From: Pseudovirgaria hyperparasitica
Taxonomy: Eukaryota
Direction: 5' to 3' (one strand)
NCBI GenBank assembly: GCA_010093815.1
Contig: ML996586.1
DNA length: 64,000 nt
In this document: positions 21,909 through 51,835 of the stretch, piece after piece
Layout of the letters: each line of letters starts with the position of its first letter
How positions within the stretch are numbered: the first letter of the stretch is position 1
The notes under the pieces: model-generated
What the model was told of the DNA's origin: nothing
Databases searched by the model: none
Seen by the model: only the letters and a program-made list of their open reading frames with translations
Position numbers and translations under genes: made by a program

Positions 21909-22280
21909 TGTAATGAGCCATCGCCAAGTATGTCCCTTTTTATAAATGGCTATGTTCTTAGTATAGTAGTCGCGACGAACTCACAAGTATCTCTCCTAGG
22001 TATTATGAGTTCTCTTTGAACGCACGACTTCTTATTAGTTCTCTTTTATAATAGGACGGGTCTATACAATACTCTTAATCAATTTATTAATAGCTAAGCC
22101 TAATAATTAATACCCATAGAGGCCCATGAACGTAAGGAAAGGTTAAATCGTCGAATATTCGTGATGGGGGAAGCGTGCCGAGCAGAATGACCAAGGAAAA
22201 CGCCCTCCTTAAATATATAATGAGCCATGTAATCGAGCCAGGGACATATACATGTGGGGCTGTAGGAGCGGCCTTCCATA
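21909..22280 (-). repeat. 3' LTR of Gypsy B copy 2
   Basis: Direct repeat with 32950-33321. Confidence 0.96.
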
Positions 22281-22426
22281 TATACCTCCCCGGCCTATAG
22301 AACTACTACCCTTAGTAGTGTAGTAACCGTATAAGAAACCGTGTGAAGAACGCCTAAAAGAAAGACCTTAATACGAATAAAATGCGCCCCTAGTAAACCT
22401 CTTAGCGCGGGTAAACCTTAGCCCGG

Positions 22427-22459
22427 ATTATTAGTTAAGGGCAGCCCTTAACTAATAAT
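22427..22459. repeat. Shared palindrome, 15-bp arms
   Basis: ATTATTAGTTAAGGG-cag-CCCTTAACTAATAAT. Confidence 0.95.
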
Positions 22460-22479
22460 TAGGTAGGTTTTTAGGCGCC

Positions 22480-28400: not shown

Positions 28401-29701
28401 TACTACTAAGTCTTCTTGCTACTTAGGGCGTATCCGGCGCGCTCTATATCCGCGAGAACCTTATCTACGTTAATTAAATGTTCTAGGATATACCTACGAA
28501 TTCTAGGCAGGGCCTCCTTAGAGTTATATTTCGTCATAGGTCCTTTAATACCTAAGTCATCTAGGAATAGTAGAGCCCTCTCCGGGATGTGTTCTTATAT
28601 GATAGTTAATATGATTCTAACGAACTAAGCTACTAAATTAGTGGCCCCTTAAGGTAATATTATCCCGTGTAGCAATCCTAGGGGCGTTATAAACCCCGTT
28701 AAGTCTCGGTAATGCTCTACTAATGGAATCTAATCGTATTCTAAGAAGAAGTCGGTAAACGTTAAGACGGCCATCCCCGTGAAGTACTCCGAGAATTCTT
28801 TATATAAGGGCGGCGTGGCCGCATCACGAATGGTAACTCGGTTAATTTCTATCGCCAAATTAATTAACCTATAATCTCGTTCCTTATTAGCTTCCTTCTT
28901 CTTTTCCATAAGAAAATAGGCGTTTCGATAAGGACCACTATAGGGCTCGAGCCTTCCGCTATTAAGACGCTCTTTTAGGATCGTGAGTACCTTTCTATGA
29001 AGGGCTCTAGGAATATTAAAGTTCTTAGTCTACCATGCCTTATGTTCTACCGTTCGGATCTCCTGCGGAGGTGCCACCTCTTCGTTAAATTTGCCAAGGT
29101 ATAAGAATTCCTATGCTAGTGCTTCCTCGCGATATAATAAGATTGTATATAGTAACTTGAGTTCCGCGGGACGTAGCTCTATTCCAATCTTTAGCTAACT
29201 TATATGTAGAGGCGTTAGACGTGTTTCTAGCGGGATAGTTGCCCTTTAAGGCTCTATCAGCCTATTAAACGCGTTAAGGCCTAGGTGGACGGCCGGAAGA
29301 AGTGTCTACCGTGCGATTGCTCGTTCACGCTAGTCTAGATACCCTAATAGATTCCTAGGGACCTTTCGGTGGGCTTCGGAGTCATCCATAGGGTGTACTT
29401 TAACTCCCTTTCTTTTATATATGGTAGCTATACTAAATCCCTTTAATACCCCGGATGAATACCGTCTTTGGAGGCTGGTAGAGCCTGCTATAAGCCATTC
29501 TATTATCGTGCCTTATTTATATGCGAAGGTAGCGTACCTTACCGCCGTAACTAGGGCGGCTAAGTCATCTTTTCTCGATAACCGAGTAACATTTTCAGGC
29601 CGGATTTTCTCGGAAAGCAACTCTATATGACTCATTTCTATATCTGTATAAAAATATATCCTATCCCCTTCGTTAGTGGGTTTACCGGACCCCATTTAGT
29701 G

Positions 29702-29740
29702 CGGATTATTAGTTAAGGGTAGCCCTTAACTAATAATCCG
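29702..29740. repeat. Shared palindrome, 18-bp arms, inside Gypsy B pol between protease and RT
   Basis: CGGATTATTAGTTAAGGG-tag-CCCTTAACTAATAATCCG. Confidence 0.95.
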
Positions 29741-32417
29741 GCTTAACTCCGGCTTCTAGCGACATGCTCCGCTATATAGTTAGTCTCTAGCCACGGAGTT
29801 ACCCTCCTTCTCTAAGACTAGAATATACTCGTCCGGACTGGTTTCGAAGGTTATACGTTCTTATCTATATACGGAGTAGACTATTAAGAGTACTTGCCTA
29901 GAGGCTGACCTCTACACCGTAAGTGAGGCCTGCCTAGTATATGGCTCCCCTAGGATAAGGTCATGATTAAGTTCGCTGTATACGAATATCGAAGTGGCCG
30001 TAACGATCCGACCTATGCGGATAGGGCATTACTATACTATTCCTACGAATGGAGTGCTATACTAAGTAGCGCTAACTAAACTCGAGTTCTTTATATATGG
30101 TAGAAGCGAAGATATCGCTAGCCTAAGACGCCTTATAGTATCTAGTCGAATACTATTTACCTGCGCGCTACTATCGAATAGTACTATACTAGTCGCCCTT
30201 TTAGAACTAACTTCCACGGGGTACCTCGGACACTCGGCTACTAGCCTTACTATCCCTTCTTTAAGCTAATTAATATCTTATTACGTGATGGCCGTCCCCG
30301 TGGTATAGAGGGGTACTAATATATTAAGTTTATTTATCTCGGGAGCCATGGCATGGTCGTTTCTTCCTTTCTTCTCGGCTCTCTCCTCTTAAGCCTTATA
30401 GACCTCTCTAGCCATGAAGTTAGGGGCGCCCTTCTTAAATACCGTATAACGTAAGTTACTATTAAGGCTTAATAGTTCGCTAATAGTAATATTCATGGTT
30501 GTCCCTAGAACGCGCACTAGCCATGCTTCGCTAGCTTCTATGCTTAGCCGCTATCCCTCGCGTAGATAGTTATTAAGCTTAACGCCTCGGATACGTGCCT
30601 TTTAACTAGGATTTAGGCCATCCCCTTCATCTATCTTATCCTTAGGCGCCGTTAGCTCTTATTTAGACGTTCCCTAGTCGCTACTCTTCTTACTATCCTC
30701 CTATTCCTCGATAATTCTTATATACTACCCTTCACGCATTCCGCGGAGATAGGCGATCTTTCTTTCCTTAGTATAATTAGGTATACTCTTCGTAATCCCC
30801 CTTCTAGATATTACGAGTATAGCGGGCTCTTCTAGAGCTATCTCCTCGCGGATATATCTATTACTAGCTACGTCGAAGCGTTCGTGGAATTCTATATATC
30901 TATCTTTCTTACTCTCGGGCGACGTGACTTCTTCTTCCGAATCGCTGTCCGCCAAGGCCTAGTAGGGATCCTTTATAGGTTTTATACTAATACTATATAC
31001 CGGCACTCCCTATAAAGCGTTAATGTTTACTATAGACGTGGAAACCTTCACTCCCCCTCCGTACTAGCTTAGGCCGTTTTAAACCGTTACTATATAGTTC
31101 CGGATAGCTTATAGGGTAGCTTATAGCCCTACTAAGGAGGGTAGTAATAGGATTTCTTCTCCGTTCGCCCCGAAACGCCCTCGGAATACTCGTACCCCGT
31201 TAATATTTAGTAATCCGTCTCTAATATATCCTACTATCTCCGGATATCTATATATTAGATAATCTCCTCCGCACGTGATGTATATGATCGGTCTTCGAGG
31301 CCTATTCTAGGCTATAACGCCTCCTTAGGAGTCTCGGGTGGAGACGTATTCTCTATTCTATGTATAATTCTATGGATAAACTTGCGTTAGTTCCATGGGT
31401 ATACCTCGTGCTTAGGGGTATGTTAAAAGATTTAGCCTTCGCGCCTATTAGTTAATAATGGCCGAAAGTAGCTTAGGTTCATACTTCTTAAGGGATAAGA
31501 ATAAGGGATTAGAGGTAAAGTAGGACTTTATCTTAATTAACGTAAGGTCTAGTTTACTAAATCTCTCTACTATCTCGTTAAACTTATCCGATTCTAGCGC
31601 GACGTATACTTCGACTAGAGAGGGGTGGCTAAATTTATTAGTTCTTCTTTCTTTATGTGACTGCTCTTCTAAGCTGGTCTTCTTACTCCCTATCTTTGAT
31701 TTATAGTATATGGCTATGGCTAGCTCTTGTGCGGCTAAGTGCTTGTTAATACGAGCTAGTTCCTTAAGTACTCTAGCCTTTCGTGATACGAAGCCATAGA
31801 TAATTACCTAGTTATAACTATGTGCTTCCATCGTGAGTTGATATTTCTCTATAGCCCGAGCCTTAAGACTATTAGGCAGCCCTTCTAGGAAGAGCTCTAT
31901 TTGCGAATACGAGCTTAGGCTTTCTTTAGCCGTAAGTTTCTCCGTAATAATACGATACTAGGAGTAGTATATAGGGAGAGAGTAGGATGGGTCTACTTTA
32001 ACCATTTCCACGTATTTTCGGATAAAGTGGATGGTGCCTTCCTTGAGGGCGGAGTTAAATAGAGAGAATTCCTTTAATAATTCTTCACGTAGTATGGCCC
32101 ACTACTATTTCTAAAACCTACCTATTCCTTTAATGGTAGGACGGAGATAGTCCTCGTAGTATAACGGTAGAGAGGTTATCTTCTTATTAGGCGGAACTTC
32201 GTAGTTTATATATATGTCCTTATACTTCCGAAGGAAGGCCGTAATGTTTATTCCTTTAAAGCGCTCGGGGGCTAGGGTAGATAGAGGTACCATCCTTCCT
32301 TGTCGCGCAAATGCTACGAAGAAGTCAAGTATCTCTCTACGAGTTACTAGGTCGTTTTAAGCTCCTATCGTACCATTACTAGTAGTAGGTGTGCTAGTGG
32401 AGACGCTGGGGGTAAGG

Positions 32418-32445
32418 TTATTAGTTAAGGGATTGCCTTAACTAA
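32418..32445. repeat. Degenerate shared palindrome in the Gypsy B gag N-terminal region
   Basis: TTAGTTAAGG-gattg-CCTTAACTAA. Confidence 0.85.
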
Positions 32446-32929
32446 AGGTTGGCCCAATGCGTCTACCTATAACACCTATCATCCCTTCTCCATGTTAATT
32501 AATCCCTTTATAAGGTAAACTATTACTATCGTCTTCATCGATATAAGGTTTACGGTATTCTACTTATGTTATTATCTTCGTGTAAGGCGTTCCTAAAGTG
32601 GTATACTCGTGTGGCCGTGTTTATAAATAACAGCTATAGTAGTACTAAACGGGTTGTATTTGTCGTTTTTGAACTCTTCTTTGCTGCTTTATCTAGCCCT
32701 GTTTTATATCCCATTCCCCTAAGACATTTTCGAGTCGCGCTATCACCCGTGTTAGTATGCGTATGCTTTTTGCGGCTACTTTTAAGAGGCTAGCCCCTAG
32801 CGACTCCGGACTCCCTGTTTTCTAGACTCGTGGCTTCGATCTAGTAAGTCTAGACTACCTTATTAGGCACGCTATATACTTCCCCTAAGCTAGTTTCGGA
32901 GTCCTAATCTCCCCCTATAAGTTTACGGT

Positions 32930-32945
32930 CCGGGTACGACCTCCA
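32930..32945 (-). promoter_or_regulatory. Primer-binding site of Gypsy B, probably tRNA-Gln
   Basis: TGGAGGTCGTACCCGG starts 4 nt after the 5' LTR. Its complement CCGGGTACGACCT-CCA resembles the fungal tRNA-Gln 3' end as recalled, not searched. Confidence 0.7.
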
Positions 32946-32949
32946 AAAT

Positions 32950-33321
32950 TATAATAAGCTATCGCCAAGTATGTCCCTTTTTATAAATGGCTGTGTTCTT
33001 AGTATAGTAGTCGCGACGAACTTACAAGTATCTCTCCTAGGTATTATGAGTTCTCTTTGAACGCACGACTTCTTATTAGTTCTCTTTTACGATAGGACGG
33101 GTCTATACAATACTCTTAATCAATTTATTAATAGCTAAGCCTAATAATCAATACCTATTGAGGCCCATGAACGTAAGGAAAGGTCGAATCGTCGAATATT
33201 CGTGATGGGGGAAGCGTGCCGAGCAGAATGACCAAGGAAAACGCCCTCCTTAAATATACAATGAGCCATGTGATCGAGCTAGGGACACATACATGTAGGG
33301 CTATAGGAGCGGCCTTCTACA
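32950..33321 (-). repeat. 5' LTR of Gypsy B copy 2
   Basis: Direct repeat with 21909-22280; flanked by ATAG. Confidence 0.96.
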
Positions 33322-35299
33322 ATAGTAAGATAGGTTATTACGGACTAAAGTAGACTATAAGTAGACCTTCGTGGACGGCTTACTTTACTATAATAGAAAG
33401 TACTATATACTAATAGATAACGCGCAATTTAACGTAGTTAGCTAATACTATAACGCTAACCTAGTAGAATACTTTAGATATATACGTACCCTAAGCTTAA
33501 TTCGTTAGTACTATTTTTAGGAAGATATACCTAAGTACGTCGAAGAATAGATAGCTACTTATCCAATTTATTAAAGAACGAAGGCCCCTAGGCACAAGCC
33601 ATATAGGAATTTACAGCCTCTTTCAGCCCCCCTCTTTATATAGAAAGATATTACTATAAACTTTATAGTTAACTTATCTCTAAGCGAGATACTTAGAATA
33701 AGTTATAATTCTATTCTTATTATCGTAGATAGACTTATAAAGATATCTAGGTATATCCCGGTATAGAAGACGATTACATCCAAAGAACTAGCGTAGGTGT
33801 TCTAGAACGAGATTATTAAGGTCTATGGTATACTAAAAAGGATCGTTACGGACTAAGGAAGTACCGTTACATCTAAATTCTAGACGTTATTCTATAAAAT
33901 AGTAAGTATAAATAGAAACATATCTATAGTATTTTATCCTTAGACGGATAGCTAGATAGAGCGATAGAACTAGACGCTTGAGGCCTATCTACGCGTATTC
34001 TATAATTTCGAGTAGAACGACTAGGCCTCCCTACTAAGTATAGTAGAGTTCGTATATAATAATAGTCGTTATAGCACGATAGGTATTATACCTTTCTAGG
34101 CGAACCTCGGACGTAGTCTAAGGATAGGTTTTAAGCCTTAGATAGTCTAATTTAATTAAATAATAGACGTGAACGTCCACGCTTAGGAATTAGCGATTAA
34201 AATCTTCGAAACCGCACGTAACTATTACGCTATAATCTAATAAGTAAACGACTCGTATATAAAGTACTATAATAGATTAGCTAAGGATTAGACGTATAAG
34301 GAGGGCGACAAGGTCCTTCTTAACGTCCGCGATATACGAACGTCGCGAGTAAATAAGAAGCTCGATTATAAAATGGCTAGTCCCTTCCGAATTAAACGTT
34401 ATATCGGTATAAGAGTCTACGAGCTCGACTTAGGAAGTAATATAAGAATCCATAACGTGTTCCACGTCTTACTACTTAAAAGATTTCAACCTAACGTATA
34501 TAGCCGTACGAACGTGTAGTTACACTCTATTATACCCTAAGATAGACTAGACGTGTTCGAAGTAGACTATATTATCGAACATAGGATCGATAAAGACGGT
34601 ATTTAGAAATATAGAATCCGTTAGAAGGACTATACTAAGGACGAGGACACCTAGGAACCAGCGGTATACATCTTAAGTTCTATAATGGCTGCGTATAAGC
34701 AAAAGATATAGAATAGCGTATTATTAATATAAGTATAGCGACGTCGCGGTCGTTATAAAAAGAAGAAGGATACCGTAGAGAACGAAGTACTAAACTAGGA
34801 AATCTAGACGCGCACTAGGAAAACTCTATATAGCAGCCCTATAATTCAAGCGTCGCATGGTTACTAGACGTGAAAAAAGCGTAAATAACCATTTTAGAAA
34901 CGTGACGCGACATACTATAATAGAATAACATAGAAGAGTCTAGAATAGACTAACATGGACTATTATATACAAGAAAAACATAGGACTAAGAACCTAAAAA
35001 AAGGTACCCTACCATAGAATTAAACTCTTAATACGAAATATAAAAGGTTAGAGTATCTAAACTAATAACTACTAGGCTACTAGTTCGGGTACTCTAATGG
35101 AATTTATAGAGATAAACCAATTTATATACGGTGCCTACACTTAGGTAACTCAAGGAAAATTAGAATATAGAAACCGATAGTTATAAGCTAAGCAAGCGCA
35201 TATATAATATCGTTAAGTTAAGAATTAAATTACTAGAAACTAGCCGACGGGTATCTAAACGGTCTAAAAAGGACTAAAATGGATAAAAGCTAGGTAAAC

Positions 35300-36721
35300 A
35301 GAGCTGGCGTGTACCACCCATAGTAGATCTAGAACACATAGAGCTAGACATAGAGCTAACACATAGAGCCAGGCACAGAGCCAAACCCATAGAGCTAGAA
35401 CCATAGAGCTACTCCTCTATCTTATTATCCATCCTAACCTCTAGTATAGTTCTCTCTAACCGCATGATATGGCGGCGGAGGACGACGACCTTAGCCTCTA
35501 GAGTAATAACCTAATCCGTTAGAGCCTAGAGGGAAGAGCCTTAAGCGCCGGAGCGTAGCGACTAGGTCCAAAGTTAGCTAACACGATCTAGAATAATCTA
35601 GAAGGGAATATATACCCTCTTATAAGGCGACTTAGAGGGAGAAATAGTAGACCTCTTATAAGATCTATTAGTAGCGCGAGACGGATAGAGGGGGATAGAG
35701 CGAATCCTCTCTACGGCCTCTATAGCTAGAATAGACTCTCTAGAATAGACTACCTAGGCGCTAGGGATCTCGCGGCGGCTAGAAAAATTAATAGGTGTTA
35801 AAAACAATTAACGTACTCGTAACTTATACTTTAATAACCTCTAGGAAGAGCTTATAGCGCTCCCTAAACTCCCTCTATATAGTAGGTAGGCGGCTATAAG
35901 GACCCCTAAGGGTCTCGCGGACGCGAAGGTCGTTATATACATCTTATATACGCATAGGAACCTAAGAATGTATTAGCGTGGACTACTTTAGATTATACTA
36001 GATTAAGATAGTCTATTATACTCACCTATAGATAAGTCTTACTAGTTACGGTATAGTGGCGGTAGCGGGTAGGTAGAGTAAAGATAGGGTATATAGGCCC
36101 GTCGCGGTTAGTAGAGTAGTAGCTAATGCTAGAGTTAGAGCGAAAGAGATATTTAGAGCCGGCCGCATGGCCCTTAATATACTTATAGTATATTAAACTA
36201 TAGTTCGCCGTTTTTCTATAGCGTAAACCGTAACCACGTTTAGTATCCTCGGCGACCTAGGCCTTATTATTAGTAGGCTAGGGTTTAGAGCGAATATTAA
36301 GGTCCTAAAAGGACCTAGAGCGACTAAATCGGTCCATATTAGACCGGAAGGAAGAGCGGTAAGGCGGTGGCGTAGGTAAGCGCGAGGGCTCGCGATCATC
36401 GTCTATAACGAGATCTTCTTTATCCTCTAGAGAAGGTAGAGTAGACGGCGTGCGCTTTAGAGCGAGAGGAGAACCTACGACTACTTCATCCATAAGTTTA
36501 GTACTAGAATTACCTAGATTAGAGCGACTAGTAGCCACATTAGTAGTAGAGGTAGTAGTAGTAGTAGCCCTAGCTACTCTCTTCTCTGACTTAGAGCGCG
36601 CCTTTATACTACCGCGATAGATAGACTTCTTAGCCGGCGTGGCCGGGGAGAAGGCGATACCTTTAGAGCGAGTCTTACGAGAGGAGGAGGCAGGCTTAGA
36701 GATAGAACTAGTATTAGATAT
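35300..36721 (-). pseudogene. Antisense intron-containing accessory gene in the 3' region of Gypsy C (putative Cys-rich/Zn-binding)
   Basis: Long frame including ORF-track 36305-36538. Y-x2-Y-x6-Y-L-stop precedes intron 35962-36025 (GTGAGT...GCTAAT...TTAG). Likely upstream intron 36722-36910 (GTAAGT...GCTAAC...TAG). 3' end approximate. Confidence 0.65.
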
Positions 36722-37200
36722 CTATATATATATGTTAGCTAGAGATCTAAGGAAGGAATATTCGTCCACCCTTAACGGCGATTAATAAAGCTAAATCAGT
36801 AACCGTAATAACGCGAATAGGTCATATAGGACCGGTTCTAATAAGAATAGACCACTATAGACCCTTCTAAACCTAAACTAGAGAAGATAGTATATAAATT
36901 AACGACTTACCTTAAGAGCGAGGTAGATATACTAGAGAATAAAATTAAAGGCAAGCGAAGCTAAATATATACTCGACCAAAGTAGCGATCACGTGTTCTA
37001 GGTAGTAGCTATAAAGTAAGGGATAAGCGCGTACATGAACTAGTAAAAGTAAACTAGAATCTCGAGTTCACCTATATTAAGGATGGTTATAACGTTATAG
37101 GAACTTAGTTAGGGATATATAGATATATAATAGATTATAGAGACTTAGGATTATATATACTTAAATGCTTCGGGGCGAAGCATAAAAAGAAGAAGGATAT

Positions 37201-37438
37201 TATTAGGACGGGAACCATAATAGACCTATATAGACTATTCTAATCCATGTAGCCACGTAGTGGCCAGAGCTAGGTTAAGTTAGCTAAGTTAAGCGAGGTT
37301 ACTATATAAGTGGACCGTATAAACCGATTCCTACTCGTTAGGAATCAACCTCGTATAAGAGTAAGATTACTCTACAAATACATTTCTATGTCTCTCTATG
37401 AACTGTTAGACTACTATCCTACGTCTTTACTCTTTACA
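37201..37438 (+). repeat. 3' LTR of Gypsy C
   Basis: Preceded by purine tract AAAAAGAAGAAGGA; followed by TSD ATTAG. Confidence 0.95.
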
Positions 37439-39523
37439 ATTAGAGAAAGACTAGAGATAGTACTATTAAGTTTTAACTACCTATATAAATTAGAGGAGAA
37501 AGCTAATAAACACTACCGCATCCTTAAGGAACGCGGATCTCTAGGTAAATCTAATAAACCTAGAACCGGTTAGAAGCGAGGTCGATTAAATACGTTCGAT
37601 TAAGAGTAACCTTAATACGATTAGCGCTAGAAGAGCGTAAATTAAAGTAAATATACGCTAAGAGGATACTAATCTAGTCACGGTAGTAACTCTTAGCGTA
37701 GAAAAGGATAAGGCATAGGCTTAAATGCCACGCCTATCGTAAAATAGTAGAACTATAGCGCACTAACGTACTATAAGTATAGTAAGAAGGGATATATCTC
37801 CCCGAACTATAAGAATCTAAAAAAAGAATAGACTATTACGCGAGACCTAACCGCGTTTTTAGCTAAATTATATATACTTAGGAGGAGCTATAGAGGCTTT
37901 CTACGAGTAAGGACCTAATTCTACTAAAAGTATCATTACCTATAGTAAATAGTACTAAAACTATAAAGCCCTCGTAGATACTAGCGTAGAAGATAACTAT
38001 ATCTTACTAATCCTCGTAAAAGAGTATAGATTATCGTATAACCTTAGTAAAGTTAGCTGAACTATCGTAGTTAATAGCTATAAGATTAGAACTCTAGGTA
38101 AAACTATAATAAACTACGAAGTTCATAATTTAGAGATAATAAAATAGTATATAACTAATAAGTTCGTCGTTACTAATATCGGATAATAGAATATAATTCT
38201 AGGAATACCTTAGCTAAAACGCCTAAACCTAATCCTTAACTTTTAGAAGAAGATATTAACGTTCCGTCGGCATCGTGGTAGATTATACTAGTAAATTATA
38301 ACTATTAGTAAGGAAGCATGGAACCTCGCTATACGGACCCGATCGTTACTAATTTACCTTATATCGCTATTAACCATCGACGAAGACGACGATAGTAACC
38401 CTAATTAGAGTAGAGATATACTATCTAATACGTATTCGTAGTATGCGGATATATTTTCGGTAGGAGACGTATCGCTTCTCCCTAATCATAGACTATATAA
38501 GCTAAAGATTAAGCTCGAAGAGGGAGTAGACATCTCTTATAGTCTACTCTATCTACTTTTAAGGCTTAAACTCGAAGTTCTTTATAAATATATTAAAGAG
38601 TTCCTTAGAAGGGGTTAGATACATCGAAGCACGTTATTAGCCGGCGCGCCTATTCTCTTCGTAAAGAAGAAAGATAGTAGCTTATACCTTTACGTTAACT
38701 ATTAGGTATTAAATATAGTAACTAAGAAGAATCGGCATCTATTACTACTAGTTAGTAAATCTTTAGACTAATTAACGAAGGCATAGTACTTTATAAAGCT
38801 AGACTTACGAGATACTTATTATCGACTCCGAATTCATCACGGAGATAAGTAGAAGACTATATTTTAGACTAGATATAGCTACTTTAAGTATACTATTATA
38901 CCGTTTAGACTAATAAATATACTAGGAGCGTTTTAAGGCTATATTAATACTATACTAGTAGAACTACTTAACGTGATCTATGTCGTTTACCTTAATAATA
39001 TCCTAATTTACTCCGATAGCATAGAAGAGCATATAGAATATATTAAATCCGTGCTAAATCGGCTAAGGTAACATAAGCTTTACGTAAAATTATTCAAATG
39101 TAAGTTCTACCAACGAGAAGTTAGGTTCCTTGGCTTTATTATAACATATAGCGGCCTAAAAATAGAGCTAGAGCGTGTAAAGACTATCATGGAATGGCTA
39201 GAACCTACTACCGTACGTTAAATTAGGACGTTTATAGGGTTTATAAACTATTACCATAAGTTTATTATAGGTTTCTCGCGAATTACGGCGCTACTTAATA
39301 AGCTTACTAAGAACGGCGGTAATATATCTATAGGTAGGCGAGCGTAGCGTAAAGCGGAGTTAATTAAAATATAGTTAACGCCGGAAGCGCGAGATGCATT
39401 CTAATCGTTAAAGAATTACTTTATAACTACGCCGATTCTTAGATATTTTAATCCTAAAAGATATATTTAGGTTAAGATAGACGCATTAGAATTCATAATT
39501 ACTAGAATTATTAGTTAACTATA

Positions 39524-41034
39524 ATAATAATAATAATAATATTGTATAACTAGGTAGAGTAGTACTCTATAGGCCTATGCCTCCTCTAGTCTAAGCCACT
39601 ATATAAGAAGAAACCCCATAGGGAAAAACTTCCTTATGTCTATAACTACATCTCGTGGAACCTCTGTTTCGTCTTAAGTATACAGCCATAGGGTACGCCT
39701 ATTAGCCTATAGCCTATGTTACCATTGTTTTACCCTTAGGCAGCACGTGTAGGTACGGAGGTTATTAGTCAAGGGCTGCCCTCGACTAATAATCGGGGTT
39801 TGCCTAGGGTTCTTCTAGTATATGTCGGGCCTCTAGTTCGAAGTCGGATAACTCCTATAGGTTCGACGTGCCCTATACCATTAGACTCTACTCCTGTTTT
39901 CGCCTTATCTTATCCCCTTTAGACTTATACCTCCGGCTCTACTAGAAGAGGGGCACGACGCCTTATCTAGCTAGGAAACTACGAGGTTTACTCCTTAAAC
40001 TCATATTACTAGCGTGCGTGCCTAGCGACACGTTCTATCTCTTTATAAATCGATACGCGCATCCGTTCTCTCGGGCTATATAGTAGTCTCCCCGGCTAGG
40101 ACGTGATCCCGCCTACTTCTAGGTATACTAAAGGTTAGAGCCTATTAAAGGGGTGAGGTCCTTAGAGCTAGTAGTTACTACTATATACCACGCCCCGCCT
40201 TTAAGCATGGCTACTATCTAGTTTCACGTTATCTATGAGGATCTCTCCATGATAGGCCGACCGTGTCTTATAGGCGAGCATCCTTTAAATCCTATACATA
40301 TATACTCGCGTGACGCGCCTAGGCAACTTAAGTATCCTCTATCTACTAACCCGACTTATTTCTACTACTTTTTAATGGGTCCCTATAGCCGCCTCTTGCC
40401 TATGTCCGTGTACTATTATCTATGTATACTAGCGCCCTACCTCCTACGGTAGACTATAACATCTCTCGTACACGGGAGCCGCTCTATCTATCCTAGACCT
40501 AAGCGGTATCCCGTATCGAGTGAAAGGTCTTAATAGAGTCGCGCTACTAGTGGTCGCGCTAGGCGTCTTAATAAACGTAGTTTAATACTATAGGAGAGTT
40601 AGCCTTAATAAGTTCATCCGCGGTAGTTTATAGTTACCCTCAACGTGATTTCTCGCTAATCCTTATGTACCTAGAGCCATTTAAGCCTCGAGGTGTCCTA
40701 TCGCGCTACTAGGACTTCCGCTTTCTCTACCCACATGGTAAGGTAGATTCAGGCCTACTTTCAATATAGTAGTAGCGCGTTAGGTGGTTTTCTTATCCCG
40801 GTATTCTCGTGGACTCCTCTTAACGCGTTAATTAAGAATAGGATAGAAGTATATACTATTCTAGCTGGTTTATTACGGTGTGGTCCCTATAGAGTAACGC
40901 GTCGCGAAAACTCTATAACCACCTATCTAGCGACGACGAGGTCGCCATTAACGCCGCTCCGAATCTCTTACTACCTCCGAAGAGGCATTGCCTAGCTACG
41001 ACGACGTGGACGCGGTTCGTGAGACTTCGTAGCC
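39524..41034 (-). mobile_element. Non-autonomous chimeric retroposon: ~1-kb non-coding head plus LINE 3' end and tail, inserted in the RNase H of Gypsy A
   Basis: 13-bp TSD TTAGTTAACTATA (39511-39523 and 41035-41047). 39524-39830 matches the LINE 3' end 44516-44785; 39982-41034 is homologous to 56786-57791. Confidence 0.9.
39762..39792. repeat. Shared palindrome in LINE-derived 3' UTR, least RIPped full copy
   Basis: TTATTAGTCAAGGG-ctg-CCCTCGACTAATAA. Confidence 0.92.
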
Positions 41035-43416
41035 TTAGTTAACTATATAAAGATACGAAAGATAAGGTATAATAGTACCCGGTTACCTTCTTTTCCCATA
41101 AAATAGCGGATATAGAGACGCGTTATAATACGCATGACTAGGAACTACTTATAATTATTAAGAGTTTTAAATATTAGCGATATTATCTAGAGGGTTCTAT
41201 ATATTAGATCGAATTATTATCGGACCATGTAAATCTACGTTACTTTATATTAACTAAGATACTTAATTACCGATAAGTATATTAGGCTAAGTAGATATTA
41301 ATATCTAACTTTAAAATCTTATATAAAGCCGAAAGAGAGAATAAGGTAGATCCCCTATTAAGGCGTAAAGATTATAAGAAATCGTTATAGATTAAGGTAG
41401 ATAGTTAGTATACTTTAGACTATGCTATGCTTAAGATATTATAAGACTAATTATCTAGTAGAGTACCGGAAGCTAGAACACTTTCGGTAACTCTCCGCGG
41501 GAAATAGAGCGGGTATTAAGTAATTAAAACTAACGTCTAAGAATTAGACTAAATTCTTAAAGACTTAATTAAATCTATCTAAAGTTCTAATGCATTAGTA
41601 AAGAATATTATAGATATATAGGAATGTGCCGTAGACTAGCTATGGTTATTAAGGTGGGAACGCCGATTAGACGCGATCTACTTCTAGAACTATCTCTACG
41701 TGCCGGAAGGTGGCCTATAAATTACTATCTTAAGAGAATAGTATAATTACGCGTTAGTAGAATACTTCGGCGTTACGAGAATAACTAAATTAATCTAAAG
41801 AATATATAACTAGCTAGGTCTTTATAAATATATAAAAGAATACGTAAAGACATGTAACGTCTATTAGTATACTAAAGTATATAGGCACTTACCATATAGC
41901 GAATTAAGGCTATTACCTATACCGAAAGAGGTATAGAAGGAACTATTAATAGATTTCATTACCGATCTACTACTAAGTAAGTATTTTAGTACTATTTATA
42001 ATAGCTTACTTATAGTTCTAGATAGATTTACGAAGATATCGTACTATATTCCTATAAGGAAGATAATCTAAGTACCGGATCTTATAGATGTGCTCCTCTG
42101 TAAGGTAATTAGACTCTATAGTATACCGAACGGTATAGTTTCGGATAGAGGTCCGTAGATAACGTCTAAATTCTAGAAAGACTTCTACTATACGCTAGGA
42201 ATCAAGCGGAAACTTAGTACTATATTCTATCTATAAATAGATAGGTAGACGGAACGGTAGAATTAGATAATTAAGGCGTATCTACGTACGTATTATAACT
42301 ACGAGTAGAATAACTAGGTAAGGCTAGTATATATTACGGAATTCGCGTATAATAATAGTCGATATACGTTAACCTACGTAAGTCTATTCGAAGCGAACTT
42401 CGGTCGTAACTATAATATATAGTTTATCGGAACTTAGTTTAAAGCTATATAGCTAAACGTTAAAGCGACGGAAATTACTATAGAACTATTCTAAACGTAG
42501 AGAAGCGTTAGAAAGCTACTATAGAATACTATAGATTATAGTAAATCTTACCACGATAGGCGAAGAAAGCCTATAATCTTTAGCGTTAGAGATAAAGTTC
42601 TACTAAATAGTAGGAATATTCGGAATATTAGGCCTAAGAAGAAGCTTAACTATATAATGATAGGTCCCTTTAAGGTTACTTATGTAATTAATAACTAAGC
42701 GTACGAGTTAAAGCTTCCTCTAACTCTAAAGATATATAATATATTCTATATTACGCTTCTTAAACCATTTCATGCCTTATTACTACCGGATTATTCCGAA
42801 TAGTAGATATATAAAGTAGTTATATAAGAAGGTATAGACATCTACGAAGTTAACTAAATACTTAGCTAATAACGTACCGAAGATAGTACATGGTTATATA
42901 AAATTCGCTAGAAAGGCTATAGTCCGGACGAAGATATATAGGAACCTATAATAAATATTAGTAAAGTAGCGATATTAGTATATAAGTAATAATTAATAAA
43001 GGAAGTCGATAATCTATATAGAGATGCTCCGAAGCACGGCGAATCTATATATTTTAGTATAGTTTAGCGTTAAGGGCGACCCCCGAAAAGAAGAAAGGTA
43101 AAAGTTAATAAGAATTAATAAGAAATTAATAAAGACTTCTTAGGAAATTCCTTTAAAATTCCGAATCTAGGAACTTAGAAAATTAAAGTTAGGAAAAATA
43201 CCTCTAAGTAGGCATGTAATATAAATCGGTATAGATTAGTAGAAATTACTAAAGAAAAGAAGATATTATTAAAGAAAGATAAAATTATAGACTAAAGAAA
43301 AGAGATCCGTAAAGATCTATATAAATCTACCTAGAAAAAGCTAAAAACGCTAGATAAAGAAATAGAGTAGTACCGATTAGTATAAATCTAAACTAATTAA
43401 GGGCGAGCGGGGGGAG

Positions 43417-44370
43417 CCGGACTAATTACTATAATAAGCGGATCTAATTCCTTCCGCTATACACGGGTTAGTAAAGTATAGAGCTATATAATATAAGTTT
43501 CTAGCCTTTCGTAGCGACGCTACGAAACCTATATAGCGTACTTTATATTTATAAACTCTTCTAAAGAAACTTACGGAACTATAGGAGCCGGGGCCTAAGT
43601 AATATAGACGCGCTAAGAATTATAAATCTTAGTAAGAAGATTTAAAGATTAGCTTAGATTTATATACCTTAGTAATAGGAGTATTAGAATCGGTATTATC
43701 CTTACTAAACTTATAACTTTTTAGTAGACGGGATATAGAGATCTTAGCTTTTTTACTAGAACCTATCCTAGGAATCTCTAGGTCCCTAGAGTATAGGAAG
43801 AAGTCCGAAGTGGTAATAATTTTTATATTATTTTAAAAAATAATATATATTAGTAGAGATTAGCAAAGATTTATAGAAAATAATATTACCTAGTAATCGT
43901 AGTAACTATAGCGGTAGTAGTATCTTCTAACTTAGTACGATTAGTATTATCCCGGTACTTCTAGGTATAATCTATACCGATCTTACGAAGCTCGTAGAAG
44001 GCTAACTCTAAAGTATTATAATTAGCACGATTATTCTCCTTATCTACCTTAGATATACGAGGCCTAATATCGATCTATATAGAAATAAGTAAATTAGTAG
44101 AAAGCGGTATAGTATCTATATAAATACCTATAAATAGTTACGCTTCTTGGTTAGATATATACCGTATATTATAGAACTAGTACTACCGTATATACGCGCC
44201 TTAGGGAACTAATAATCTATATACTTTATACTTAGAAGGTCGTTATCCGGGCTAGTAGGGGGTATAGTTATAGCCTTCGCTATATTAGTAATATAAGCTA
44301 GGCATGGATTATTCGAAGGCGTAGCCTTCCTTACTAATTACTTTATAGCGTTAAGGTTTCGGGATACTAT
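43417..44370 (-). pseudogene. Antisense intron-containing accessory gene in the 3' region of Gypsy A (putative Cys-rich/Zn-binding)
   Basis: P-C-L-A-Y (TGC at 44302-44304), then Y-G-I-Y-L-T-K-K-R-N-Y-L-stop directly before intron 44075-44127 (GT...ACTAAT...TAG). Second copy at ~2960-3790. Ends approximate. Confidence 0.6.
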
Positions 44371-44515
44371 AATATAATTATTATAGATCTAAGTAGATTT
44401 ATAACGAAGTGTTATAGCTATTTAAATCTTTATATAAAACCTTATAGATCTAAGTAGAATTATAGCGAATTATTATTATTATAGACTATTTATATAGAAA
44501 ATTAGTAAATCTATA

Positions 44516-47500
44516 ATAATAATAATAATATTATATAACTAGGTAGAGTAGTACTCTATAGGCCTATGCCTCCTCTAGTCTAAGCTACTATATAAGAAGA
44601 AACCCAAGAGAGGAAAACTTCCTTATGTCGATAATTACATCTCGTTAAACCTTTGTTTCTTCTTAAGTATATAGCTATAGGGTACACCTATTAGCCTACG
44701 GCCTATATTACCGTTATTTTACCCTTAGGTAGCACGTGTAGGTACGGAGGTTATTAGTTAAGGGGTTCTTCCGGCATATGCCGGGTTTCCTCTAATGTAT
44801 ACTAGGTTTCTTCCGGTATATATTTCCGGGTCTACTAGAATTAGAGGAGTAGTAGGTATATAATCATCTACCGGGCGACGTCCTTAGGGTACTTATTAAG
44901 CCATTATATAATATCGGAGGTTCTTATTATATAGATAAGCTTCTACCTTTACGTGTGAAGATCGGGGTATATTATAAGATAGTGGCGTATTATACCTCTC
45001 CGGCCGCACGTCTTATACTATAGAGATACGTCGGGGACGCCTCTCTTATAGAGGTAGTATAGAAGTTCTATAGCGCCCGTTCGGGCTTAGAGGAGTATAG
45101 ATGCCTAGGCCTTTATAAGCCGTTTATATATCTATTTACTCGGCTCCTTCTATGGTCCTTAGATCTACTCTAGATACCTATTCTACTAGGAGGCCTACTA
45201 GGCCCGGAGTATCTCTTTCTACTTATCTTAGATCTATAACTATATACTTCGTCCGAGCTCTTAAAGGCTCTATTAGTCTAGAAGGGTATCTAGGTTATCC
45301 TTAATCTCTTATACTACTTAGTTCGAGTCTATTTCTATCGGGCACTTATACCATAGTCGAGTCCGGCCTATATATAAGAGTACTTAGTAGTATATACTAA
45401 CTCGCGCGTGTAGCGCGGCGAAGGTATATTCTATATTTTCTACACGTTTCTATGCTTATTATTTAGTAAAGTATACTACTCTCTATATCTAGTAGAAGTT
45501 ATATATACTTATAACGTCTATCTCGCGTCGTAGTAGCACCGTGTTAGTAGCTTTATATACGCCTAATATAAGACGGAGTATACGGTTCTATATAGATTCG
45601 AGCTTTATTCGCCTAGTCTATATAAGGGCCGTGTGCTAGTACTCGTGTCCGTACATAAAGGCGGGTCGTACTATAGATATATATAGCTAGCGTGCCTTAT
45701 CCTAGGCGGTTCCCTACGTAGAGGCCGTAATCCGGTATATAGCGGCTTCTATCTAGAGGGCCCTAGAAACGGCGTATGCTACCTATGGTCCCTATTTAAG
45801 CTTATTATCGATTATAACGCCGAGTGTGTATATACTTTATATTGGCGGTTCGTTAAAGGCGTCTATTCTAGGGCGTCACTCGCCTTCCCTAGTAGCCCAT
45901 TTCCTACGGCGGTTAATAAAGTACATGAGTTAGTACTTTTCGGGGGCGAACTTTACTCTATGGCGCTTTACCTATTAGACGTATCTCCCGTAGTCTTATT
46001 CGAGTCGTCTATATGTTTAGCTAGTATTATTATCGATAGCTAGAAGGTATATATCGTCTACGTATCCTACTATCTCTATATATTATATTCTCTAGAGGAG
46101 GTCTATAGTAAAGAAGAGGAAGAGAATCGGGGAGATAGTACTTCCTTATAGAATGCCGTAAGCCGTCTTCTCGTACTTACTTCGATATCTAGGGATGTAT
46201 ATCTAGGTAACTCTTTCGGCAAGGAAGGACTATATAAACCGCGTAATCCACGCGGGTATACGCCTCTTCCGTAAGTTATAGATAAGTCTCGTGTAGTTTA
46301 CTTTATTAAATACGCCGGCCATGTCGAGGGAGAGTAGCGTTACTACACGTCCCTACTTCTATACGGTCTAGACGACTTTGAGGATATATTAGATAGCGGT
46401 AATTAGAGAGCTTCTAGCCTTCGCCTTCTGGTTTACTAGGAGGAGGTTATATTCCTATACTACGGCGCTTATCTTCTTTACGATTATAGTCTCTAGTATC
46501 TTCCCGAGATAGAAGAGGAGGGCGATTAGCCTCTATCCTTTTAGGGAGCTAGGGTTCTTCCCTAGTTTCGGGAGTATAATAGTATAGGCGGCCCGGAAGC
46601 TTTGGGGGTGGTATCCGTTCTTAATATATACTTAAAATATATAACTAATGAGCGGTAGGGTAGCTGGTATAGTGCGTTTAAGGTACCTATTTAGTATTCT
46701 ATCCGGTCCGGGTACCTTATTATTCGGGAGTACTTTAACGGCGTTAAGTATATCCTCCTTAGTAACCTCTTAGGGGATATTAATTACGTCTAGATATTTA
46801 GTATTATTAATATCTAATAGGTCTACTAGCTCCGGGAGGGGGAATATAACTTTACGTAAGATCTCCGTCTTCTCCGGGCTTATAGAGTATATTCTCTCTT
46901 AGTATATTAGGGGAGGTATTAGTGGCGGCGGTATCGGCGCGTCTACACCCTTAGCCTACTTTACCATGCACTATAGCCCTACGGCTTACCGTGTGTGTTT
47001 ATCGGTAATTATATACTATTATTTTCGTCGTTTATTACGGAGGGCCCTATCACGATATCGCACTACTTCCTTCTACTCTTCCCACGCCTCGGTCGTCCGG
47101 ATATAGTATACACGTGTATATAGTCTACGGGTATCTCTTCTATACTCTCGTATTTAAGGTATACCCCTTGCTTCTAGGGGTCTATACGTTTAGTATAGCA
47201 CGTGTTTATCTCTTATAGCTTAGTATACTTAAAGGAGGACTTACACGGCCTTGTCTATGGCTAGGCCGTTGGATACGTTAACTATAGAGGGGTCTAGAAT
47301 CGCCGATTCTAGGTCCTCTAGATATTTATCCTAATTAGTATCCTTCTATAGCTATTTCCCACGTTATTTATTAAGAGTGGAGACGTCTATTACGGTTTCT
47401 ATATATTCATGGTCGGAGTCCGTCTATATCCGGCTCGGGCGGTAGTACTATACTCTATAGCTAATATGCTTGGTGGCAAGGGTGAGGTCGAGCGTAGACC

Positions 47501-49793
47501 CGTCCTCGTCCTATTTATATTTCCTCTAGGTAATCTACCCCATAGGTATAAGGAGGTATAGAAAGTTATAGCACCGTGTATATAGTTCCCTTACTCTAAG
47601 TTCTTCTCTCGCGACGGCTAGGCCTCCCTACTACCTATGGTAGAGATTAAAGTCGCCTAGGAGGATATATTATCCCGGCGTTGTGGTGCCCTCGAGTATA
47701 TCGTCTAGTATAAGCGATTACTATTAATTATAGATGTTATAGATATGGAGAGGCCCTATACTTATCTAGAGATATAGTATTATCTAGAGGTTATTACGTT
47801 CGGTATAAGACCATTCTAAGAGCGGGATCGACTTATATATATAAAACATGACTCTCCTATCCGGGCCCGTAGGGTGGATAGTATAGTATCCTAGGTGTAT
47901 TATTAGCTTATTAGTTTAGTAGTGTTTATATAGTTCCTAGATAGCTATTATTACGGCTCCTGTCTCTTCTAGGAGCGTCGCTTGGTTTTCTCATTTATGT
48001 TATACGTTCGCCTATATAATAATAAGTATATCTTATACCCTTATTAGGTACTAGGGAAAGTTCGAGTCTATATATTAGTGGCGCTAAGGCGTGATTATCC
48101 TCGCGCGGTAGCGGCTTTAAGTATACCCCGGGGTTAGCCTATCTTTCTCTATATAGTATACTATTACGCGTTATCCTCTCCCCTTCGGGGGGTGGTTACT
48201 AGATTCATAAGTAAAGTTAGGGATAGCGGCGAGGGTAGCGAGGGCCTTATAGCTTGGTATATCTACCTCGCCTCTCTTATCTTTATCGCGTTAATATATT
48301 CTACGACCTACTTACGTTTCATATACGTTACCGACTAGGATAGGTATTTCCCGTCGTAGTTAGAGTACTTAGCGGTGTCCCTATCTCGCGTCTCGTTACT
48401 CTACGTCTTATAAGGGTATTCCTTAGTATTATAGCCCTATTTATACTACCTATAGGCGGTCTTCTAAGAGCACCTCTGCCTAGTATACCTATATCCTTAA
48501 TAGTTAAAGCATTACGTTATTACCTATGCCCTATCCTATAGTTCCGCCGTGAGTAGCTCTCCTTTAGCTAGAAAGCCCTCCTATATTATTCTATAGGCGA
48601 GAGCGGGGTCCCTAAGCTCTACTATTATAGTAGAGTACTTTTTTAATTTTATCTTGATCCCTTAGACGTTCTTCTACCACGCCTTCGCGATCTTAATCCC
48701 GGGGTACTTCGGTTTGTTAGATCGCTCTATTCGCTCGATATTATCTTCTCTAATAACGTGTCCTTAGATAGGGACGGTATATACCTATATTAGGTACATG
48801 GTTACGCGGATAGACGCGCTAGAGAAGATGTTATTAATCACGTTCGGGTCGCGCGAGATAGTCTACTAGGCCGTGTTAGTAGTAGTAGTTAGTACTATAC
48901 CTCCTAGGGTGAGTTTGGCGGCCACTATATTTAACTATATCCCTTTCTATTTATTAATCTTATTTATAATATCCTTTAGAGACGCTTACTAGACTTATAC
49001 GAGTACTTCTTTATTCTAGATAGCGACTTATATACTATATACCCCGTCCGTAGGTACCCTTAGTATTTTAGCTAATATAGCTATTCCGCTTATAGGTGCG
49101 GCGACCTATACCTACGTGCTAGGGCGTTTTCCCTAGGTAAGGCCCTCCTAGATCCTCTATAGGCTGGCCTCTATACGATCTAGTCTAGATTCTAGGTCTA
49201 GTTCCGGCGCCTATTTTACTCCTATAGTAAGCTCCCTAATATTCCGGACGAGGTTCCGGAAGATACTAAGGAGGGCCGTTTCTCCCTTCTTAACTTCCCC
49301 TTCTATACGTGCTACCTAGTAGTTAATCTTATCCGGGAGGGTCTCCCCGGGTAGAGTCCCCTCTATCTCTATTATCTATAGCGTTATACGCCCTTGGTTA
49401 TTCGTCGTTTATTAGACGGGGGTTTAATCATCCTAGGATATACCGCTATATGGCCGTTTCTACCGTACTAGTGTTAGGGGTATACCTAGTAGAAGCCGAG
49501 GTACGTCGGTACCTAAGGCCGCTATAATTATTAGTAAAGGGCTACCCGTAACTAATAAAAGGGGGTTAGCGTATTAGCGTTTATTAGAGATAGTCTATAC
49601 TCGTATCATCGAAGAGCCTTCGAGCGTATATATATAGCGTCTCTATACGTCGGTATCGTTATATACTATATACTATACGTACGTACGTGTATTGGAGGTT
49701 GTTATACTCGGTATACTCTATCGTTTGATGTATGTAGATCGCTATATTACCCCGAATTGACTAGTTTGGTCCGTTAGGGTATGAGAAGTTTTT
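44516..49793 (-). mobile_element. Full-length Tad1-clade-like LINE inserted in the 3' region of Gypsy A
   Basis: 14-bp TSD TTAGTAAATCTATA (44502-44515 and 49794-49807); empty site visible at ~3924-3937. Short (TAT)n tail on the element strand; ORF1 knuckles, APE and RT motifs as in 5695-10273. Confidence 0.95.
49528..49558. repeat. Shared palindrome (2 mismatches) upstream of LINE ORF1
   Basis: TTATTAGTAAAGGG-cta-CCCGTAACTAATAA. Confidence 0.88.
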
Positions 49794-50382: not shown

Positions 50383-51835
50383 CTATAAATAGAGATAGAT
50401 AAAGTCTATTTTAAAATATAACCTTAAAGAGAGACGTATATAGAGTGAAAAGTATTAGAATTAGGGTCTTAAGCTATTTAAATATAGGGTCTATATAGAT
50501 AAGGCTTATATAGACCCTATAGAGTACTAAACTAGGTAGATATTATATAAGTAAAAGATAGCTAAGGAGCCTTAAAATCTTTAGTATAAGCCTAATAGAT
50601 AAGACTAGAAATACTACATCGTAAGCTACGTCTCCTAGTTCTATAAAGGAGACCTTATCTTCTATAATAATAAGTAAGTTAAAGTAAGAAGGCCTTAAAA
50701 ATTAGGTAAACCACAATGCCGTAAGAATAAGACTTAGGTTTAATATAAGGCTAGAGTCCTATCCTAGTAGAATTAATATAAGTATAAGGTTATCTATAAG
50801 CTAAAGGGTAATAGAATAATAATAGAGTACTATATTTTAAAGATACTATCTATTTATATAAAGTAGGTAAAGGCCCTTAAGGCCTAGTACTCTTATACTT
50901 TTTAGCTAGTTAAAGATAGAGATCCTTTATATAGGAAGCCTAGAAAAGGTAGTAAGATAGGGAAAACTAATCTAGCTATAGAGGCTAGACTTAAAGAGAG
51001 AATATAAGTTAATTACTACTATATATAGAGTTCTAATCTAAATCCTATAGAAGTCTATTAGGCTATATTAAAGTAGAGATTAAGGAAAAGGATATAGTAG
51101 AATAATAAGAAGCTAAAGTAGTATATTTTAGATATCTAGAATAGTATTATACTCGAGGAAATTTATACCCGGATCTCTAACTTACTAAGATAATATTAGT
51201 ATCTAGTAAAATATAGTAGAGGGTGCATTTATAGCTATAGCTAGTAATCTATTAATAAATTAACGTTTTTTAAGTATATTCTAGTGATGCGGCCTGTGCG
51301 CGGAGACACATCGGTGATCGGTGAGTTTTGGTACCCCCTGTTGCAAGTGTGGCGACATATGAACATGATTGGTAGATTATACATCCACTACCCAGACTAC
51401 AATAGCCTTGTCCCAAGGCAGCCACTTGCCCACTCAAGTCTGTGGAAGGGAAGGCGATGGCGCTTAGCCAAGGCTTCCAGGTTAAACCGAGTCCGCCCCG
51501 GCGGATGCATGGCACAGATGAGAGGCTATCGGACTTAAGATACTGATGGTTAGATGAAACTCCACGCTCTTAATTAACGACTTGACTAGAGTCGAGGTCT
51601 GGGGAAAGGAAGGGCATGGACTGAAATCTGTGGGTATCTAGAAAGGTCTACGCTTCTATCGACGTGCGAGAAGCATCGAATATTTAGAGCCAAATTCTTT
51701 GAAGAGAATGTTGAATGTGGGTTTCCTGCGACCTTCTCACTGCGCCGAACCGCGGAATGGCTCCCCTTCAACACACCATGTAGCGTCCGTTAAGATTGAA
51801 CGGGACGCCGCCGGATGAGCGTTGTTATTTCATCT

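Follow-up and report, generated by a model that had tools for sequence, protein, structure and literature searches.

Can a retrotransposon wrecked by repeat-induced point mutation (RIP) still be recognised as having once carried an additional gene on the strand opposite pol? The question is raised by two elements, Gypsy C and Gypsy A, in a 64,000-nt stretch of the Pseudovirgaria hyperparasitica genome (NCBI GenBank assembly GCA_010093815.1, contig ML996586.1). This whole stretch is referred to here as the window, and positions are counted from its first letter. Both elements are chromoviruses in which an unusually long spacer, of 2.4 kb in Gypsy C and 1.5 kb in Gypsy A, separates the chromodomain from the 3′ long terminal repeat (LTR). 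An earlier note, made from the letters alone, had proposed that each of them carries a conserved, spliced accessory gene antisense to pol, with the same Cys motif and the same intron position, the Cys codons having been turned into Tyr codons by RIP. The best overall explanation, to which we give slightly better than an even chance, is that Gypsy C was killed by RIP and that its spacer would hold the wreck of an extra gene, most likely on the strand opposite pol.

A minus-strand frame in the Gypsy C spacer

Gypsy C lies on the plus strand at 17950-37441, with 244-bp LTRs that are 93% identical. Pfam and tblastn recover a reverse transcriptase, an integrase and a terminal chromodomain, which together with the LTR pair identify it as a chromovirus. 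Its parts, and those of the candidate gene, are listed below; L001 is an intact relative described in a later section.

17950-18193, plus strand: 5′ LTR, 93% identical to 37198-37441
20223-21494, plus strand: RIP-degraded reverse transcriptase/RNase H of pol (tblastn to P0001 aa 591-986 and L001 pol aa 249-651)
21911-33317, minus strand: nested LTR element X, which splits Gypsy C (LTRs 21911-22276 and 32952-33317, 95% identical; reverse transcriptase 28984-27701, minus strand)
33524-34702, plus strand: integrase, SH3 and chromodomain (Pfam SH3_Tf2-1 E=2.9e-13, Chromo E=6.7e-5; tblastn to L001 pol aa 819-1179)
34755-34772, plus strand: purine tract ATAAAAAGAAGAAGGATA, first of two copies, located in the tail of pol right behind the chromodomain; 18/18 identical to 37182-37199
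34773-37181, no strand: pol-to-3′ LTR spacer of 2.4 kb, unique in the window
35961-35686, minus strand: candidate exon 2, phase 0, weakly supported; 6 stops in 92 codons read, periodicity score near zero
36025-35962, minus strand: intron-like signal of 64 nt (GTGAGT; GCTAAT at 35977-35972; TTAG with AG at 35963-35962)
36064-36026, minus strand: Tyr motif Y-R-H-Y-T-V-T-S-K-T-Y-L-TAG, followed by GTGAGT from 36025
36721-36026, minus strand: candidate antisense exon 1, encoding an S/T/R/K-rich protein
37182-37199, plus strand: polypurine tract, second copy of the 18-mer, directly upstream of the 3′ LTR
37198-37441, plus strand: 3′ LTR, pair with the 5′ LTR

An exact 18-nt purine tract brackets the spacer on both sides; its doubling reflects either a second, central-type priming tract or a scar of spacer acquisition. 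The spacer also contains a 25-nt tandem repeat in three copies (35333-35411).

The candidate exon 1 falls between the end of the chromodomain at 34702 and the start of the 3′ LTR at 37198. It begins with the longest stop-free run of the spacer, 138 codons on the minus strand (36721-36308). When the spacer was shuffled block-wise with dinucleotides preserved, none of 500 shuffles reached this length; with only 36000-36900 shuffled, one of 500 did. Within the RIP-degraded DNA it is exceeded by a single run, of 162 codons, antisense to a long interspersed nuclear element (LINE). The run opens with ATA at 36721, right after a TAG, and ATG to ATA is a canonical RIP change. It is followed by three more stops and then by the terminal TAG of the Tyr motif at 36028-36026. 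Over the frame 36772-36026, 5 of 249 codons are stops, compared with 3.7-6.9% of codons in the RIP-degraded frames of pol.

Directly behind the terminal TAG stands the intron-like signal. Fungal introns follow a consensus of GTRNGT at the donor, CTRAY at the branch point and YAG at the acceptor, over about 50-70 nt, and at the level of sequence the Gypsy C signal agrees with all four (GTGAGT, CTAAT, TAG and 64 nt). Strict signals of this kind number 20 in 104 kb of single strand, and of 8636 stop triplets only 2 have one directly behind them. Periodicity of 8-12 bits per 240 nt was seen in this register at ~35900-36800 with a purine/pyrimidine codon model, on which RIP transitions have no effect, the 90th percentile of the window being 7.2 bits.

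The gene would then have consisted of an exon 1 of ~230 codons (36721-36026), a canonical 64-nt intron and a short, poorly preserved exon 2. Its protein may have been made from an antisense transcript starting in or near the 3′ LTR, and might have bound DNA, probably as a dimer, tuning transcription of the element or of the host. The element map, the open frame and the splice-like signals are shown directly; for Gypsy C we infer coding strand, expression, splicing, DNA binding and function alike. An antisense intron survives retrotransposition because it is never removed from the sense genomic RNA. This argument is sound, and antisense-intron indicator cassettes rest on the same principle. A former minus-strand gene in Gypsy C is somewhat more likely than its absence, and the balance of probability leans narrowly towards a real antisense gene having once been carried there.

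Gypsy A and the tyrosine motif

Gypsy A occupies about 38415-44770, also on the plus strand. It has a reverse transcriptase, an RNase H, an integrase continuing into a Chromo domain and a 3′ LTR, as expected of a chromovirus; its pol match reaches L001 pol aa 1177, inside the L001 Chromo domain (aa 1136-1186). Its parts and those of a second copy of its spacer are:

2950-3960, plus strand: second copy (A2) of the Gypsy A 3′ spacer, 89% identical to 43529-44538 (A1)
3588-3550, minus strand: A2 motif Y-S-I-Y-L-T-K-K-Y-N-Y-L-TAG, with GTATTT next
38415-39500, plus strand: reverse transcriptase (L001 pol aa 228-574)
39501-41075, plus strand: 1.6-kb insert in pol; an A-type LTR copy (39524-39785) stands at its start, and its part 39973-40967 has 68% identity to 57799-56818
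41076-42971, plus strand: RNase H, integrase and chromodomain, aligned by tblastn with aa 588-653 and 756-1177 of L001 pol
42991-44512, no strand: pol-to-3′ LTR spacer of 1.5 kb
44074-43877, minus strand: candidate exon 2, 66 codons with 2 stops and modest coding-like periodicity
44127-44075, minus strand: intron-like signal of 53 nt (GTATTT; CTAAT at 44097-44093; TAG with AG at 44076-44075)
44166-44128, minus strand: motif Y-G-I-Y-L-T-K-K-R-N-Y-L-TAG, followed by GTATTT from 44127
44513-44770, plus strand: 3′ LTR core, 91% identical to 39524-39775

We read 39501-41075 as an insert because 38415-39500 and the sequence from 41076 onward are contiguous in pol coordinates. Immediately before the 3′ LTR lies a 61-nt tandem repeat (2.2 copies, 44380-44513). 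The stretch 51022-51263 resembles the Gypsy A spacer weakly, a similarity that was dismissed once the two were aligned.

The strings quoted in the earlier note are all in place, both of them on the strand opposite pol and between the chromodomain and the 3′ LTR; in Gypsy A the motif (from 44166) lies between the chromodomain end at ~42971 and the LTR start at 44513. A branch-like CTAAT and an acceptor AG were likewise found at the distance claimed, 64 nt from the donor in Gypsy C and 53 nt in Gypsy A. The two A copies, which are copies of a single sequence, share the motif, and each retains a TGC codon (44304-44302 and 3726-3724). The Gypsy A donor, GTATTT, is without a G at +5, and its signal fits only the loose GT..CTRAY..YAG pattern, which follows 98 of the 8636 stop triplets. 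The purine/pyrimidine model ranks the frames of the two candidate exons of Gypsy A first among the six, with 3.5 and 6.5 bits, and the same exon stretch in copy A1 reached 9.6 bits, near the 97.5th percentile of the window (9.9).

The proposed reversal of RIP, in which TAY codons derive from TGY and stops from sense codons, was checked where pol frames of the window align to the intact pol of L001. There the logic is sound: 5 of 10 Cys residues of L001 pol read Tyr in the window and one is kept as Cys, 17 of 28 Trp residues read as stops, and the integrase C-x2-C of Gypsy A is now C-x2-Y. The reversal is ambiguous all the same, since 17 of 58 His residues also read Tyr, and Arg is a further source. 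In an alignment of the A1 and A2 spacers 115 of 1011 columns differ, 93 of them by transitions and mostly with CG in A2 and TA in A1; these differences point to double C-to-T changes at CpG besides the usual CpA targets. One such pair, CGT (Arg) in A2 and TAT (Tyr) in A1, sits inside the motif itself, and another in exon 2, where it yields a spurious Y-x2-Y in copy A1 only. Because of the pol alignments and the A1/A2 differences, a Tyr here may descend from Tyr, Cys, His or Arg.

How much the shared motif says about common descent depends on how often it arises in this kind of DNA. In the six-frame translation of the window Y..Y.{6}Y occurs 99 times, and Y..Y.{6}YL* has 5 occurrences in 127,996 codon positions, two of them unrelated (16028 and 8959). 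The ungapped BLOSUM62 score of the C and A 13-mers, 19, is matched or bettered at 59 of 103,918 positions of RIP-degraded DNA, from which about one chance match is expected in the Gypsy C spacer. The score drops to 11 when the comparison is lengthened to 20 residues and to -6 at 30. Local alignment of the last 101 codons of C and A scored 33, reached by 465 of 2000 shuffles, and alignment of the spliced versions scored 38, reached by 492 of 2000; the two putative proteins therefore fail to align beyond chance. Comparison of the two spacers by blastn and tblastx returned only noise, the motif pair being absent from the hit list. The strings common to both elements are thus present, but the match between them is within chance and by itself adds almost nothing; the same holds for the shared intron position, which stays unproven.

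Of the Zn2Cys6 spacing C-x2-C-x6-C-x5-12-C-x2-C-x6-8-C, to which the proposed split zinc-cluster domain would conform, only the first three positions are found in C and A, all as Tyr, and no window frame matched Pfam Zn_clus (PF00172) at E<=10. A six-position [Y/C] version of the pattern is found in neither spacer. Exon 2 of C and that of A are both without a C-x2-C near their start, and neither the spliced nor the continuous frame contains a second Cys half.

An intact relative and the weighing of alternatives

L001 is a metagenomic contig of 7452 nt and ~50% GC. A metagenome scan found it only through the integrase SH3 query of Gypsy C, a 74-residue stop-free stretch, with 45% identity. It holds an intact chromovirus, with a gag bearing a CCHC knuckle and a pol with protease, reverse transcriptase, RNase H, integrase, SH3 and Chromo domains; a terminal repeat of 123 nt would fit LTRs that have been collapsed. 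Antisense to pol, an open reading frame (ORF) at 7049-6429 runs for 206 open codons, and translation from the Met at 6995 gives a protein of 188 aa (6995-6432). This ORF has the chromodomain on one side and on the other a purine tract (7052-7066), probably the polypurine tract at the 3′ LTR boundary; it overlaps the disordered tail of pol (pol stop at 6790).

The encoded protein is Ser-rich at its N-terminus; C-x2-C-x6-C-x8-C-x2-C-x6-C comes next, and a long helical region follows. The six Cys residues are in Zn2Cys6 spacing and in a single reading frame, although with 17.1 bits (E=0.0059) the match to Pfam Zn_clus does not reach the gathering cut-off of 21 bits. In an AlphaFold2 model, short helices at 43-47 and 62-67 coincide with the C-x2-C pairs and a helix spans 77-167, mostly with a predicted local distance difference test score (pLDDT) >90. 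The best Foldseek match to this model had E=0.23; among the 26 matches listed at E<=10 nearly all were Zn2Cys6 DNA-binding domains, including those of Hap1, Pho7, Ppr1, Leu3, Gal4, Put3 and AlcR. In the ESM Atlas the protein obtained a recognition score of 2873, its nearest clusters being hypothetical proteins of Ascomycota (142-214 aa, 0.93-0.95). A sequence search of the PDB gave coiled-coil noise only (E>=0.45), scans of viral contigs with the antisense protein and with the integrase-chromodomain part of L001 returned no matches, and a scan of the L001 LTR region for CGG/CCG sites showed nothing clear. The model resembles Gal4, Hap1, Ppr1, Put3, Leu3, Pho7 and AlcR in its six-Cys spacing, two short predicted helices and long predicted helix; unlike such factors, the protein has only 188 aa and no fungal-specific regulatory middle domain, and is encoded by a retrotransposon. 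We consider the antisense gene of L001 very probably real. Its ORF is intact at the predicted place, and therefore the kind of gene that the earlier note had in mind exists in a relative. Taken as an example, such a gene would encode a Ser-rich, Gal4-type Zn2Cys6 protein with a long helix, just inside the 3′ LTR.

A RIP-aware scan of the window with the first half-cluster of L001 was too permissive, at least 15 positions outscoring the C and A sites; the best-looking match, Y-T-E-Y-N-N-L-R-H-T-C at 10204/49721, is in the LINE and hence in no chromovirus. The N-termini of the C frame and the L001 protein are alike by eye only (start codon, Ser-rich stretch, S-K-P) and are absent from the tblastn output.

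Several results weigh against a former antisense zinc-cluster gene in the window. Every homology search with the minus-strand frame of Gypsy C came back empty: a word-based protein search scored 0 of 1049 candidates, a full HMMER search found 0 matches among 1.84 billion representatives, Pfam offered nothing credible (only Hamartin, 10 bits, E=0.29), the ESM Atlas gave no usable match and a low recognition score of 1064, and none of 584 pattern matches in a metagenome scan was confirmed. A search with pol found only three distant proteins, at 25-30% identity. L001 is a single relative with an intron-free zinc cluster, and its pol has only ~33% identity to what is left of pol in C and A. Its antisense protein gave only noise in tblastn against the window, and in RIP-aware Smith-Waterman alignment to window frames its score was reached by 15-57 of 60 shuffled queries, depending on the frame. 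In Gypsy A the longest open run of the spacer, 67 codons, was reached by 118 of 500 shuffles. To these are added the chance-level motif match and the want of any second half-cluster described above. Long open runs also occur here as antisense shadows: the plus strand opposite the LINE ORF has stop-free runs of 162 and 118 codons, so that in RIP-degraded DNA antisense frames can be the longest ORFs. Finally, a purine/pyrimidine model trained on pol favours the plus strand in the Gypsy C register, by 25.1 to 12.0 bits. This model is biased to purine-rich strands and misjudged 1-2 of 7 cases of known strand, calling the LINE endonuclease domain wrongly and leaving the LINE shadow run roughly tied.

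On an alternative reading, neither C nor A ever had an antisense gene, motif, stop and GT all being products of chance under RIP, and the open frame in C would be the codon-aligned shadow of an additional sense ORF or of a coding fragment captured between the two copies of the polypurine tract. RIP floods all frames with TAY, TTA/CTA and TAG/TAA codons (Tyr 6.7%, Leu 11.7% and stop 7.6% of six-frame codons in the window). The motif is at its chance frequency, loose intron signals behind stops are commonplace, and a CGT-to-TAT change can make a false C-x2-C-like Y-x2-Y, as it did in A1 exon 2. The 13 bits by which the pol-trained model prefers the plus strand, the LINE shadows, the empty homology searches and the exact 18-nt repeat that brackets the spacer, as it would an acquired insert, all fit. 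Yet the plus frame opposite the C run has about 10 stops in 301 codons and the Arg/Gly/Val-rich composition typical of a shadow, and it too has no Pfam match. The minus frame, on the other hand, runs from a codon derivable from ATG, placed behind a stop, to one of the two strict intron signals that follow a stop, and the equivalent spacer of intact L001 contains an antisense gene that is very probably real. We give the absence of an antisense gene in either element a substantial probability, well short of even.

At the opposite extreme is the whole of the earlier proposal, in which A and C had homologous antisense genes whose zinc cluster was split by a phase-0 intron two codons past the third Cys. 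In its favour are the identical Y-x2-Y-x6-Y-L-TAG/GT spacing on the antisense strand of the same spacer in both elements, a T-x4-[KR]-T-C-like spacing common to C and L001, the periodicity of the A exon frames and the conversion of Cys to Tyr verified in pol. Zn2Cys6 clusters have basic residues between Cys positions 2 and 3, and Gypsy A has K-K-R there. Against these points, nothing aligns past 13 residues and about one match of this quality is due to chance in the C spacer, no second Cys half follows either intron, the A donor is poor and the A frames are not unusually open, and the only intact relative has its cluster unsplit. We regard this proposal as very unlikely. Its idea of an antisense accessory gene is partly supported in Gypsy C by the open frame and the intron-like signal, and is weak in Gypsy A.

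Between the two lies our preferred reading, a wrecked extra gene in Gypsy C. That this gene was of zinc-cluster type and that the Tyr motif is its remnant is a tentative suggestion, on balance doubtful, and the same for Gypsy A is improbable. A wider possibility, held just as tentatively, is that a group of ascomycete chromoviruses encodes, just inside the 3′ LTR, a small antisense Gal4-type factor made up of a Zn2Cys6 cluster and a dimerising helix, with C and perhaps A as RIP-killed members having an intron within the cluster. Such an in-cluster intron would persist only because the gene is on the non-genomic strand.

Surroundings of the elements and known antisense genes

Bases 1-52000, from a filamentous ascomycete, form a nest of retroelements that RIP has degraded: they are AT-rich, with TpA/ApT indices of 1.3-4.6 and scarce CpA/TpG. 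From 52 kb on, normal host genes adjoin the nest. Among the sequencing runs listed, two DNA runs from one study contain the window, and no RNA run does.

5695-10273 and 45179-49790, minus strand: two copies, 75% identical and RIP-degraded, of a LINE with endonuclease and reverse transcriptase domains; the copy at 45179-49790 is right of Gypsy A
53005-53538, minus strand: amidase fragment or exon, a host gene beside the nest
61693-63827: NLR-type host gene beside the nest (NB-ARC/DUF7779/TPR)

The order of Gypsy A spacer followed by LINE is found twice (2950-10273 and 43529-49790, with an N gap at 4855-5694), an arrangement that looks more like one composite having undergone segmental duplication than like two separate insertions. 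Inside the nest is an island of un-degraded DNA at about 10400-14600 (GC 0.44-0.52), with three long open frames, one of 541 aa on the minus strand (12975-14597) and two on the plus strand, of 403 aa (11452-12660) and 241 aa (10706-11428). A fragment at 56818-59013 (minus strand), where the DNA is GC-rich and little degraded, has 68% identity to 39973-40967 of the insert in Gypsy A pol. It also includes an LTR-like piece that corresponds to 39525-39608 and 44510-44597; the DNA adjoining it showed no detectable pol.

Antisense genes in fungal chromoviruses are already known. According to excerpts of papers that cite it, the interval from pol to the 3′ LTR of the Boty chromovirus holds an antisense gene, brtn; brtn of Boty-like chromoviruses in Botrytis cinerea and Sclerotinia is attributed there to Zhao et al. 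2011, Virology 417:248 (PMC7264820, PMC8365987, PMC4227169, PMC5987419). As so described, Gypsy C is like it in being a fungal chromodomain Ty3/Gypsy element with a candidate extra gene on the opposite strand in that interval. The C frame has no relative among the 1.84 billion protein representatives, so any kinship with brtn would be very distant at best. The host is no close relative of Botrytis: the closest named relatives of the neighbouring NLR, from metagenome-assembled genomes of lichen fungi, Apiospora and Fusarium, are ~55% identical. Our literature search, from which the brtn paper itself is excluded, found no paper linking a Zn2Cys6 protein to an antisense retrotransposon ORF, and in the survey "LTR Retrotransposons in Fungi" (PMC3248453) the words "antisense" and "zinc" are absent. 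Novelty is not claimed for the L001-type protein, the features of brtn being known by citation only.

In plants, the Gypsy elements Grande, RIRE2 and Retand with the TRP28 domain have established antisense genes in the pol-to-3′ LTR interval, in the excerpts available of PMC11963269 and PMC7264820. These elements, as portrayed there, share with Gypsy C a long spacer and tandem repeats within it; their antisense ORF, which in Gypsy C is a candidate only, has a proposed role in DNA binding and in regulation of the element. They differ in belonging to plants, in being non-chromoviral and in encoding TRP28 (PF04195) with no Zn2Cys6 cluster. A functional analogy may also be drawn with human T-lymphotropic virus 1 (HTLV-1), whose HBZ would correspond to a small DNA-binding or dimerising regulator encoded antisense beside the 3′ LTR, where introns are possible on the non-genomic strand. 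HBZ is a bZIP protein whose spliced transcript comes from the 3′ LTR. It belongs to a human retrovirus and has a bZIP instead of a Zn2Cys6 domain, so the likeness is of function only and implies no relatedness; an excerpt of PMC11963269 gives its localisation as nuclear. With the Gal4-type cluster itself the window copies have in common half of the pattern at most, as Tyr.

That LTR retrotransposons can have antisense genes is known; the functions of these genes are not. If the reading offered here is true, a chromovirus-borne Zn2Cys6 protein would have a predictable activity, sequence-specific DNA binding, that is directly testable as control of the LTR or as interference with host zinc-cluster factors. 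For annotation, the lesson is that RIP readily makes Cys-like Tyr motifs, stops and splice-like signals. The copies in the window are dead, and their value is as a lead to an intact antisense Gal4-like gene family in a related chromovirus.

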